From contig JBHLMP010000058.1 in assembly GCA_048938025.1 (NCBI GenBank), positions 1 to 21,692 on the forward strand: 21,692 nt of DNA, written 5' to 3'. A program made the position numbers and the translations under genes. Below are positions 19,423 to 21,592 of this stretch, one piece after another. The notes beneath the pieces were generated by a model. It had not been told where the DNA came from, made no database searches, and saw only the letters and a program-made list of their open reading frames with translations. The stretch is from Promethearchaeota archaeon (GTDB lineage Archaea; Asgardarchaeota; Lokiarchaeia; Sigyniarchaeales; SOKP01). Every line of letters starts with the position of its first letter. The stretch's first letter is position 1.

Positions 19423-19950
19423 ATGACCAAAGATTCTATAGCGCTCATTGGATTTATGGCAACAGGTAAAAGTACAATTGGTAAAAAATTGGCAGATTAT
19501 CTAGGTGATGATTATAGATTTATTGAAACTGACCAATTAATTGTTGAAATTGCTGGTAAATCCATTCCAAGTATATTTGCGGAAGAAGGAGAAGAGAAAT
19601 TTCGAAAATATGAAATGATAGTTTGTGGAAAAGCTTCCAAATTGAAAAATGTAGTAATTTCATGTGGAGGTGGCGCTGTCTTAAATAGGGTAAATATAAA
19701 AAAATTAAAAAAAAATTGTCATATTGTTTTGCTTAAGACAACTGTAGAGGAAATTTGTAACAGAGTTTTGAAAAATGGGAAAAAAACTAGACCTCTAATA
19801 AATAATGAATATCCAAAAGAAGAAATTGAAAGAATTTTAAATTATAGAGAAGAATTTTACGAAACAGCAGCAGAAATTATTATTAATACAAAAGATAAAT
19901 CGATTGAAGAAATTGTAAATGAAATCATCGAAAAGACTAAAGTTGTTTAA
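19423..19950 (+). CDS. aroK: Shikimate kinase (bacterial-type AroK, NMP-kinase fold)
   Basis: LIGFMATGKSTIG, IFAEEGEEKFR, VISCGGGAV, RPLI and R-x3-Y motifs. Confidence 0.93.
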   Translation: MTKDSIALIGFMATGKSTIGKKLADYLGDDYRFIETDQLIVEIAGKSIPSIFAEEGEEKFRKYEMIVCGKASKLKNVVISCGGGAVLNRVNIKKLKKNCHIVLLKTTVEEICNRVLKNGKKTRPLINNEYPKEEIERILNYREEFYETAAEIIINTKDKSIEEIVNEIIEKTKVV

Positions 19951-20118
19951 ATAAACAGCATTATTCTCTTTCTTTCTTTATTATTTTATCTCTAACCATT
20001 ATAAAAATTAATTTATAGAATTTAGAAAGACACCATAACGTAATGTTATCGTAAAACCTAAATTTAAATTTATCAAACCTTACCTATAATTAAAAAATTA
20101 GGTATAAGAGTGTTAGAC

Positions 20119-20321
20119 ATGACAGAGTGGAAAAGAAATAAATGCCCTAAATGTGGAGAAGAAAATCCTAAAAAGCTTCATGAAGTGGCAGATAAAAGTC
20201 AAGTACTTTATTATTCAATGCAAGGAACACCCGTTTATAAAGCAGATGTATTTTAGAGACATTTGCATAAAAAACATTGTTGAAATGTGGGAATTGCGGA
20301 GAAATTTTCGGTAATGGCTAA
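20119..20321 (+). CDS. Split small zinc-ribbon protein, join(20119..20240,20273..20321), 56 aa after intron removal
   Basis: Spliced product: MTEWKRNKCPKCGEENPKKLHEVADKSQVLYYSMQGTPVYKTLLKCGNCGEIFGNG. The unspliced frame stops at TAG 20254-20256, and the second CxxC lies in another frame. Absent from the ORF track. Confidence 0.8.
20241..20272 (+). other. Candidate 32-nt bulge-helix-bulge (archaeal-type) mRNA intron
   Basis: Central helix TTAT 20235-20238 / ATAA 20267-20270. Bulges AAA 20239-20241 and AAA 20271-20273. Intron stem GCAGATGT 20242-20249 / ACATTTGC 20259-20266. Exon-exon pairs GT 20233-20234 / AC 20274-20275 and AACA 20226-20229 / TGTT 20278-20281. Confidence 0.75.
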
Positions 20322-20334
20322 ATCTAATTAGATA

Positions 20335-20362
20335 TTTCTCTTTTTTTTATTTTATATTTCTT
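20335..20362 (+). terminator. Archaeal-type oligo-T terminator candidate
   Basis: T-rich tract (tttctcttttttttattttatatttctt) shortly after the TAA at 20321. Confidence 0.4.
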
Positions 20363-20386
20363 ATGAAGATAGGATTATTTAGATTT

Positions 20387-21592
20387 CTACTCTAAGTATA
20401 AAATGATTTTATTTTGAGCTTTTAACATATCTAGCATGATAAGTTTCATAGCATCTTTAATATCTGGCACATTATTTGGTATACTGCGCTTTGCGTTCAC
20501 ACTTGCCATTAATACTTCATTTAGTCCACGCAGAATCATATCAGGACTGTAAAAGGGTCTATGTGAAGCCCACCAAGTCTGACAGCTGTGAATTCCTCTA
20601 TCAAGCAAATTCCGAGCGTTATCAAAAATTTTCTTTCTCTCATCATCCATACTTTCCCGATATTTAGCAGATAAATGAATCAAAGTGAGGGCATACATGA
20701 AAAATCGATGTTGTTCAATATGGATTTGATTATTTGGGTCGAACCAGAGAGGAAAGGGTACATCTGTGGCAATATCATAAGGCATTGTCGACCAGCTGGA
20801 ATCACGTGGGATTTGAGTAAATCCTTTAGGAAATCTATCAATAATTTCTGAGATAGTGCATATTTTCACGTCATCTCTATGAGGTAAAGCTTGAAAAAGA
20901 GGTATAAGGAAATCTTTTATAGCATGTTTTACGTGATGTCCAAATGTTTCACCATCCATAGCGAGGATAACATACATATCCTCTGAAGTATTCTTGTATT
21001 TTAACCTATTGATAAAAGTCTCAACATTATTAATTTTATCGAAAGCGCAATCGATTGAGATGTAATCATCTCTGAACAATAACTTTAAACCACTTGGATG
21101 TATAGATATATGATTTGTTGGAAATTCTGGTAAAGTATTGGCAATCCCGCTCATTATAATCCAATCAAACCCCGCTTTTTTAACAGTTTTTAAAACCTCT
21201 TCAGAAATTGCCATTTCTGGCGGAAAAAATCCACGAGGGTGATAAAGTTTTCCAAAGAAATGTTGATTGGTTTCATTATTAAGATTTATTTGACGTTTAA
21301 TTTCAGGTTCTGGAATTAAAGGAAGTAAAGGGTGAAATTTACCTGAACCTGTAAATTCGATTTGCCCTCGAGAAGCTATAGATGTAATTAATCCTAATAA
21401 ATCGTCATAGCCAAAATCATGCAATTGCTCAGTTAGAGTTCCATTAATATTTAAAGTAAGTTTAACCTCAGGATGATCCATCAGTGCCTCAATTATGGGC
21501 CTGTATGATTCATTTACAATTTGTTTTATTACTAGAGGGATTTGAACTGGTGGTTGATAAATATGAAATAAGAAAGCAAAATAAACAACCAT
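20387..21592 (-). CDS. Glycoside hydrolase family 57 (alpha-amylase/amylopullulanase-like)
   Basis: HIYQP, ESYRP, HPLLPLI, nucleophile region GFFPPEMA, acid/base region AMDGETFGHH and SSWS. Confidence 0.9.
   Translation of the reverse strand: MVVYFAFLFHIYQPPVQIPLVIKQIVNESYRPIIEALMDHPEVKLTLNINGTLTEQLHDFGYDDLLGLITSIASRGQIEFTGSGKFHPLLPLIPEPEIKRQINLNNETNQHFFGKLYHPRGFFPPEMAISEEVLKTVKKAGFDWIIMSGIANTLPEFPTNHISIHPSGLKLLFRDDYISIDCAFDKINNVETFINRLKYKNTSEDMYVILAMDGETFGHHVKHAIKDFLIPLFQALPHRDDVKICTISEIIDRFPKGFTQIPRDSSWSTMPYDIATDVPFPLWFDPNNQIHIEQHRFFMYALTLIHLSAKYRESMDDERKKIFDNARNLLDRGIHSCQTWWASHRPFYSPDMILRGLNEVLMASVNAKRSIPNNVPDIKDAMKLIMLDMLKAQNKIILYLE

Follow-up and report, generated by a model that had tools for sequence, protein, structure and literature searches.

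A candidate bulge-helix-bulge intron in the mRNA of a small zinc-ribbon gene of an Asgard archaeon

Introduction

The two cysteine knuckles of a putative zinc-ribbon gene lie in two different reading frames in the genome of a Promethearchaeota archaeon, with stop codons between them. How could one protein be made from such a gene? The locus is part of a 21,692-nucleotide stretch of DNA, hereafter the window (contig JBHLMP010000058.1, positions 1 to 21,692 of the forward strand). A sequence-only reading of the window had proposed that 32 nt between the two knuckles form a bulge-helix-bulge (BHB) intron, which the tRNA-splicing machinery would remove from the mRNA. The frames, the fold, the orthologues, the independent DNA records and the splicing genes of this organism are analysed here, together with other ways in which the interruption might be explained.

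Results

A zinc-ribbon gene in two reading frames

The first frame opens at ATG 20119 on the plus strand, encodes the first CxxC knuckle (CPKC) and, if unspliced, closes at an in-frame TAG (20254–20256) as a 45-aa ORF. Its translation reads MTEWKRNKCPKCGEENP...YYSMQGTPVYK, followed by the intron-encoded residues ADVF and the TAG. The second knuckle, KCGNCGEIFGNG, is followed by TAA 20319–20321 and lies in a frame other than that of ATG 20119. This CGNC frame is closed on its upstream side by TAA 20268–20270 and opens only at 20271. Deletion of 20241–20272 (32 nt) yields one clean 56-aa ORF with two CxxC motifs. The sequence-only reading had described an ORF from ATG 20119 with CPKC that ends at TAG 20254, a CGNC and a TAA just downstream in another frame, and a 32-nt removal that deletes the stop, mends the frame and gives 56 residues with two CxxC motifs; the reading frames bear out all of this, and TAA 20268–20270 is the codon that shuts the CGNC frame upstream.

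The gene as proposed is composed of three segments on the plus strand. Exon 1 (20119–20240) runs from the ATG through CPKC to the AA of the Lys codon after PVY. The BHB intron (20241–20272) holds both the in-frame TAG 20254–20256 and TAA 20268–20270. Exon 2 (20273–20321) supplies the last base of the Lys codon, followed by TLLK, CGNC, EIFGNG and the stop TAA 20319–20321. About 20 nt past this stop, a run of eight Ts (20341–20348, plus strand) was read from the sequence. The run looks like an archaeal oligo-T termination signal, which would put exon 2 inside the transcript. A scan for bacterial-type terminators detected nothing, and an Rfam search of 19900–20450 returned zero matches.

The location of the two halves in different frames could call to mind a programmed ribosomal frameshift that joins them. 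However, the CPKC frame ends at 20256 and the CGNC frame opens at 20271, so the two have zero bases in common and a single frameshift is unable to join them. The sequence excludes this explanation for the window, and its probability is vanishingly small.

In the public annotation (NCBI), the gene is present only as the 45-aa truncated ORF P0028. A second truncated NCBI ORF, P0030, differs from it at 2 residues and has the same ADVF end. In a public protein cluster (cluster 3, P0028–P0031), the 45-aa ORF stands beside two proteins of 374 and 456 aa that are unrelated to it, which is taken as a clustering oddity.

The encoded protein and neighbouring genes

The predicted spliced product is a 56-aa C4 zinc ribbon. 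Its AlphaFold model displays a three-stranded zinc ribbon with a pLDDT of 77.5. A Foldseek search of the PDB gave nothing at E <= 0.001; its best rows, at E 0.6 and above, are zinc ribbons such as RNase P Rpp21 and Rpb9/TFIIS. In Pfam and NCBIfam, no family scored above its cut-off. The label "ribosomal protein S27AE", which JGI gives to the uninterrupted homologues, is not supported: PF01599 reaches 15.9 and 13.3 bits, below its cut-off of 22.3, and NF001669 reaches 18.8 and 20.1 bits, below its cut-off of 54. The upstream neighbour of the gene is a shikimate kinase. The downstream neighbour, on the opposite strand, is a 401-aa protein with no family match, its matches to branching enzymes being far below the cut-off.

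The BHB fold and predicted cut sites

A BHB of canonical geometry spans 20233–20275, as found both in the pair list and in an independent motif scan. The outer helix h is formed between the exons, with GU 20233–20234 on its 5′ strand and AC 20274–20275 on the other (G20233–C20275 and U20234–A20274). The central helix H pairs UUAU of exon 1 (20235–20238) with AUAA of the intron (20267–20270). It is flanked by a 5′ AAA bulge (20239–20241) and a 3′ AAA bulge (20271–20273). The intron stem-loop h′ (20242–20266) contains 8 bp between 20242–20249 and 20259–20266, one of them G-U, and a 9-nt loop (20250–20258). The 8-bp stem of h′ is also part of the minimum-free-energy (MFE) fold. The earlier description of a strict hBHBh′ motif thus holds for the 4-bp UUAU/AUAA helix, the AAA bulges and the 8-bp stem with its G-U pair, but the word strict is slightly generous for a helix h of only 2 bp.

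For the cbf5 intron, cleavage is described as occurring between the second and third bulge residues (PMC2738675). This rule, as given there, would place the cuts in the window after 20240 and after 20272 and remove 20241–20272. As both cuts fall in A runs, the product is identical for 32-nt deletions starting at any position from 20239 to 20242. Frame repair therefore fails to fix the cut sites to one base.

The BHB conformer has a free energy of −6.0 kcal/mol, against −9.8 kcal/mol for the MFE structure of the same 57 nt. It is thus 3.8 kcal/mol less stable than the latter, and 2.4 kcal/mol less stable than the hairpin alone. For the 86-nt region, the fold is unremarkable (z −1.29). Helix H is built of four A-U pairs and both bulges are AAA, strings that arise easily in A+T-rich DNA.

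The first full codon of exon 2 (20274–20276) is ACA in the window's genome (G000) and AAG or ATG in its three closest relatives. Its C20275 pairs with G20233, and one may speculate that the exon has adapted to the intron.

The sequence around the bulges bears on a second explanation, in which the mRNA stays intact and the ribosome hops over the insert, as in bypassing of the T4 gene 60 or mitochondrial byp type. Take-off at AAA 20239–20241 and landing at AAA 20271–20273 would give the same protein, and the 8-bp hairpin follows the take-off codon. In T4 gene 60, a stop codon stands directly after the take-off codon. In the window, by contrast, the take-off codon is followed by GCA, and the first in-frame stop, TAG 20254, comes four codons on. 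Bypassing is very unlikely, and comparison with related species, described below, weighs further against it.

Chance expectation and genome-wide scans

The whole genome was scanned on both strands for strict BHB motifs, with 4/4 pairs in H, at least 6 bp in h′, at least 2 bp in h and a length of 16–100. Among its 10,964 matches in 7,047,394 strand positions was the window's element, detected blind (H 4/4, h′ 8 bp, h 2 bp). Motifs of length 32 number 147 in the same 7,047,394 positions, or 2.1e-5 per position. By chance, about 8e-5 are expected at the four equivalent positions, and about 3e-4 if every 32-nt deletion that removes both stops is counted. Of 8 aragorn intron calls in this genome that were examined, the strict geometry and the cut rule recovered 1 exactly, the 19-nt intron of tRNA-Ser(UGA), and failed to reproduce the other 7.

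A crude census of the genome counted, from a base of 160,240 BHB candidates, the removals that would fuse two open frames. Such ORF-fusing candidates show no excess, with 6594 against 6579, 6630, 6552 and 6511 in four frame-shifted controls. The strict set (U>=40, D>=15) contains 448, against 402–447 in the controls, and four other thresholds are equally flat. Hence mRNA introns are not common in this genome; the background of the census is high enough to hide a few dozen true cases. In addition, a blastn-short search of the whole genome with the 32-nt intron matched its own locus only, the next best match being 16 nt long.

Uninterrupted orthologues

The homologue search used the unspliced 45-aa ORF as its query, which makes the test of spacing independent of the proposed junction. 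It found 9 database homologues of 56–62 aa, all of them uninterrupted and with the second CxxC. All nine share the Y-x5-C spacing, from the Tyr of PVY to the first Cys, that the product has after removal of the 32 nt, and all nine have the C-terminal CGxCGEIFGNG of the predicted product. In the closest species (G012, G063 and G056), the gene is likewise uninterrupted, and the protein of exon 1 is 90–93% identical. These three genes read straight through the site, as PVYK-KLMK/MLMK-CGVCGEIFGNG. The gene is also uninterrupted in 13 of 13 orthologues that belong to the order's other three families, and these display the spacing seen after the 32-nt removal. The sequence-only reading had called for intronless orthologues with the Y-x5-CxxC spacing, and for an alignment that requires a deletion of exactly 32 nt. 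The former turned up in the 9 homologues, the 13 more distant orthologues and the three closest congeners, and the spacing agrees with the latter in every uninterrupted relative compared.

The 32-nt insert is absent from all other orthologues. As the uninterrupted relatives share the spacing after removal, the 32 nt are extra in this species only. In a gene tree of 168 columns, G000 groups with the three intronless relatives (SH-aLRT 99). The distribution is most simply read as a recent gain, with the candidate intron confined to its species lineage.

The insert in independent DNA

The window comes from a metagenome-assembled genome in 88 contigs, a kind of source in which assembly or sequencing could introduce 32 nt that the organism does not carry. 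The sequence-only reading had itself named such an artefact as fatal to its claim. However, contigs of four runs from four studies span 20084–20350 with 0–4 differences and no gaps (X1 record 5, X4 record 13, X5 record 16 and X6 record 25), and a JGI metagenome contig (L067) contains the intron letter for letter. These contigs and L067 bridge the insert without a gap. As far as contigs can show, this refutes an artefact, which is left with only a minute probability.

Scans with degenerate patterns found one metagenome contig (L067) and zero genome contigs besides the window's own. The window's intron is known only as identical copies, and its own pairs can therefore show no covariation. No variants are listed between 20212 and 20308 in the contigs of the four runs. 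Within the gene, the strains differ at three positions. Two of the changes are synonymous, 20205 A>G in a Val codon and 20309 C>T in a Phe codon. The third, 20319 T>A, is carried in three other studies and in L067; it changes the stop TAA to AAA (Lys) and adds KSN, so that the protein ends in GNGKSN instead of GNG (L067:2160-2170). The KSN extension resembles the longer C termini of the relatives. Contigs of relatives from the same samples diverge from the window at 20240/20241.

Selection on exon 2

If the 32 bp were a recent insertion that killed the gene, the 45-aa ORF or nothing would be made and the BHB-like fold would be a coincidence. Several of the findings above are of the kind expected in this case: the insert is missing from the three closest relatives and from all more distant orthologues, the motif consists of A/U-rich strings, the genome shows no enrichment of such introns, and the public annotation has P0028 only. 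However, the probability that a BHB of this exact geometry would fall by chance just where it is needed is about 1e-4 to 3e-4, and exon 2 is intact, with its frame, both cysteines and the EIFGNG tail retained.

The changes in exon 2 also argue against a dead gene. Compared with the three closest relatives, exon 2 displays 8–9 synonymous and 4–5 non-synonymous differences in 15 codons (pN 0.11–0.14, pS 0.89–1.02). Where the three relatives agree and G000 differs from them, 6 of its changes are synonymous and 3 non-synonymous, small counts that may include changes older than the insertion. Roughly a fifth of changes would be synonymous if there were no selection, and the synonymous excess is therefore the pattern of a translated exon. 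The strains of the four studies likewise differ only by synonymous changes and by the stop-to-Lys change, which adds 3 codons. Gene death is an unlikely explanation, although it is the least improbable of the rivals to splicing.

Inserts at further sites in the genus

An orthologue of the gene is present in 49 of 54 genomes of the genus. In 35 of these 49, the gene is interrupted by a 29-nt insert of invariant length. The site is the same in all, between the second and third bases of the Met codon in YYSMQG and 21 nt upstream of the window's site (L007, L008, L010-L022, L026 and L045-L063; for example L012:1475-1510, minus strand). Its architecture is the same as that of the window's element. 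CAGU of the exon pairs with GCUG of the intron to form a helix flanked by the bulges AUA and AAG; stacked on this helix is an 8-bp hairpin in which one base is bulged. The alignment of the 35 sequences (A1) has 93.4% of its cells paired, and 8 of 12 pairs have changed on both sides. None of 500 shuffles reaches any of the five measures, and controls with slid partners are 15–48% paired.

For the 29-nt insert, a single deletion restores AU|G and the YYS-M-QGTPVY frame, and it is the one that the BHB cut rule predicts. After removal of the insert, all orthologues become clean ORFs of 54–60 aa. A script flagged 48 of the 49 as clean; the 49th, the uninterrupted G043, was left unflagged only because its slice included a tandem second stop. 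In the 26 of 35 genes that have a gapless 171-nt CDS, exons 1 and 2 have dN/dS values of 0.077 and 0.058, and pS is 0.52 upstream and 0.68 downstream of the insert. The low dN/dS downstream indicates that the downstream exon is read in the frame that exists only after the 29 nt are removed.

The earlier expectation that orthologues would turn up with an intron and covarying BHB pairs was borne out in these 35 congeners, though at a different site. The compensatory changes, in 8 of 12 pairs, belong to that other-site intron, whereas the window's intron is known in identical copies. On comparative evidence, the 29-nt insert is the stronger case for mRNA splicing.

The same comparison bears on the rival explanations. 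Ribosomal hopping was rejected for the 29-nt insert, as a Met codon split AU|G across the junction is impossible by hopping and 21 of the 35 inserts have no take-off codon that matches the landing codon. The other 14 are matched by wobble, including the 1 with an identical codon. The covarying bulges and the 4-bp helix, moreover, have no role in bypassing. Frameshifting has little room, as the frames of the congeners overlap by as little as 1–4 nt in G024, G061, G051 and G052. Finally, BHB inserts are demonstrably tolerated in this same gene in 35 other species, which further argues against gene death in the window.

Two carriers of the 29-nt insert contain a second one, and both second inserts fit the BHB cut rule. 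In G017 (L010, G017:C52), the additional insert is 30 nt long, in frame and with a TAA, and occupies gene positions 155–184, 3 nt downstream of the window's site. It has an AAA bulge, 3 of 4 pairs in H and an AU-rich h′ of 9 bp. In G016 (L022, G016:C20), the additional insert is 31 nt long and occupies gene positions 154–184, after a second CAGUAU. It lies 4 nt upstream of the window's site and 18 nt downstream of the 29-nt insert of the same gene. The G016 insert resembles the 29-nt family, with 30.6 bits in covariance model R1 (G016:C20:12485-12522), and looks like an intragenic duplication of the intron.

Over the 54 genomes of the genus, model R1 recovered its 35 training sites at 47–64 bits and the second site of G016. 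Otherwise it found nothing above 22.8 bits in these genomes, and no match in G000. A borderline full-length match (G063:C370:6128-6163, 21.8 bits, E 0.0098 for one genome) was observed in a close relative of the window's organism.

On the gene tree, two changes are needed for the 29-nt insert. Seven intronless orthologues (G019, G002, G058, G064, G049, G048 and G060) nest among the carriers with a support of 86–89. This position, as read from the 168-column gene tree only, suggests a precise loss of the 29-nt intron in the clade of seven.

The splicing machinery

The sequence-only reading had taken the organism for a probable Asgard archaeon. This agrees with near-identical proteins at NCBI, which are named Promethearchaeota or Hodarchaeota archaeon. 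G000 contains two genes with the EndA domain (PF01974; 105.1 and 70.3 bits), in open frames of 208 and 201 aa from stop to stop, and one RtcB (566.2 bits). The two EndA loci lie in the regions of C66:88427-88651 and C33:14707-14955. Two EndA paralogues are reported in 44 of 60 Asgard genomes in the text available for bioRxiv 10.64898/2026.10.13.758758. Asgard archaea are described as possessing a broad-specificity (alpha-beta)2 EndA (Kaneta et al. 2018, PMC5829648, in the part cited). Together with that description, the two paralogues suggest that the EndA of G000 also assembles as (alpha-beta)2.

The tRNA genes of G000 appear to be rich in substrates for such an enzyme. Only 32 tRNA genes were detected by aragorn, 18 of them with intron calls of 12–67 nt at varied positions, and many others are probably too disrupted for detection. 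The calls agree with the intron-rich tRNA genes that bioRxiv 10.64898/2026.10.13.758758 describes for Asgard archaea. The cbf5 gene of this genome is uninterrupted.

Discussion

Taken together, the interval 20241–20272 is very probably a true mRNA intron of the EndA type. The proposal of mRNA splicing by the tRNA-splicing machinery finds support in the spacing of the orthologues, in the covarying BHB of the congeners and in the presence of EndA and RtcB. Transcription would proceed through both exons. In the pre-mRNA, UUAU of the exon would pair with AUAA of the intron, flanked by the AAA bulges and stacked on the 8-bp intron hairpin. A heteromeric EndA would cut after A20240 and after A20272, and RtcB would then join the exons and probably circularise the intron. 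In the mature mRNA, ...PVYK would be continued by TLLKCGNCGEIFGNG. We infer that cleavage and ligation take place, where in the A runs the cuts fall and what becomes of the intron.

The inserts at neighbouring sites point to a broader possibility. At least four insertion sites within about 55 nt, an intragenic copy at a second CAGUAU and a precise loss would mark this gene as a hot spot at which BHB introns come and go in an Asgard genus, a reading to which we give an even chance. If it is right, introns of the endonuclease type can both spread to protein-coding genes and disappear from them in the prokaryotes most closely related to eukaryotes, and the expression of a zinc-ribbon protein depends on the tRNA-splicing machinery. 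The 32-nt sequence is single-copy, the covariance model, at its sensitivity, places no further member of the 29-nt family in the 54 genomes, and cbf5 is uninterrupted; BHB introns in coding sequence may therefore be a phenomenon peculiar to this gene.

If a BHB intron does interrupt coding sequence here, splicing of protein-coding transcripts by the tRNA machinery would reach into the lineage closest to eukaryotes. The 35 plus 3 natural variants of this one small gene would provide a compact system for the gain, copying and loss of introns. The case also bears on annotation. Gene callers truncate genes that are split by introns, and the public record of the window's gene is the 45-aa stub only. 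In intron-rich archaea, the annotation of small proteins may therefore be wrong in a systematic way.

Comparison with known systems

The splicing of HAC1 and XBP1 mRNAs is independent of the spliceosome, uses sites defined by stem-loops and changes the downstream frame, and in animals the exons are ligated by RtcB. The proposed splicing in the window resembles it in these respects. However, the endonuclease of HAC1/XBP1 splicing is Ire1 instead of the tRNA endonuclease, the reaction is regulated by stress, and no homology is implied.

A literature search of the main text of articles found two mRNA substrates of the tRNA splicing endonuclease, cbf5 and the HVO_1309 leader. In the same main texts, the search found no BHB intron in protein-coding genes of Asgard archaea. 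The HVO_1309 mRNA of Haloferax volcanii is likewise an mRNA substrate of this endonuclease (Schwarz et al. 2020, PMC7714728). Its splicing was demonstrated by knock-down in vivo and cleavage in vitro, and cbf5 was the only other mRNA case reported before it, according to the portions cited of that study (PMC7714728). The HVO_1309 intron, as described there, differs from the window's in that it lies in the 5′ UTR and not in the CDS, and in that its host is a euryarchaeon with a homodimeric enzyme.

The non-canonical tRNA introns of Asgard archaea (bioRxiv 10.64898/2026.10.13.758758) share the lineage and the machinery with the window's element and, in the account available, show many repeated gains at varied positions. 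They sit in tRNA genes, whereas the window's element sits in a protein-coding gene, and in that account introns of protein-coding genes go unmentioned.

The closest counterpart is the cbf5 intron of Crenarchaeota (Watanabe 2002; Yoshinari 2006; Yokobori 2009, PMC2738675). On its sequence features, the window's element would work like that intron, and it displays the features of the family that sequence can test, covariation of its own pairs apart. Both are short introns in a CDS, with a BHB or, in the cited accounts of cbf5, a relaxed BHB at their borders. In both, cuts are predicted between the second and third bulge residues, and the host possesses a heteromeric EndA of broad specificity, as far as these accounts describe it. 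The cbf5 intron is also patchy among related species, a distribution that is read in the same sources as gain and loss. Splicing of cbf5 has cDNA evidence in that literature, whereas the window's intron is known here from DNA alone. Unlike cbf5, the window's gene encodes a 56-aa zinc ribbon in the Asgard phylum, with the intron in one species lineage. The same gene differs further from cbf5 in its insertion sites, of which there are at least four in some 55 nt across the genus, one of them an apparent intragenic copy.
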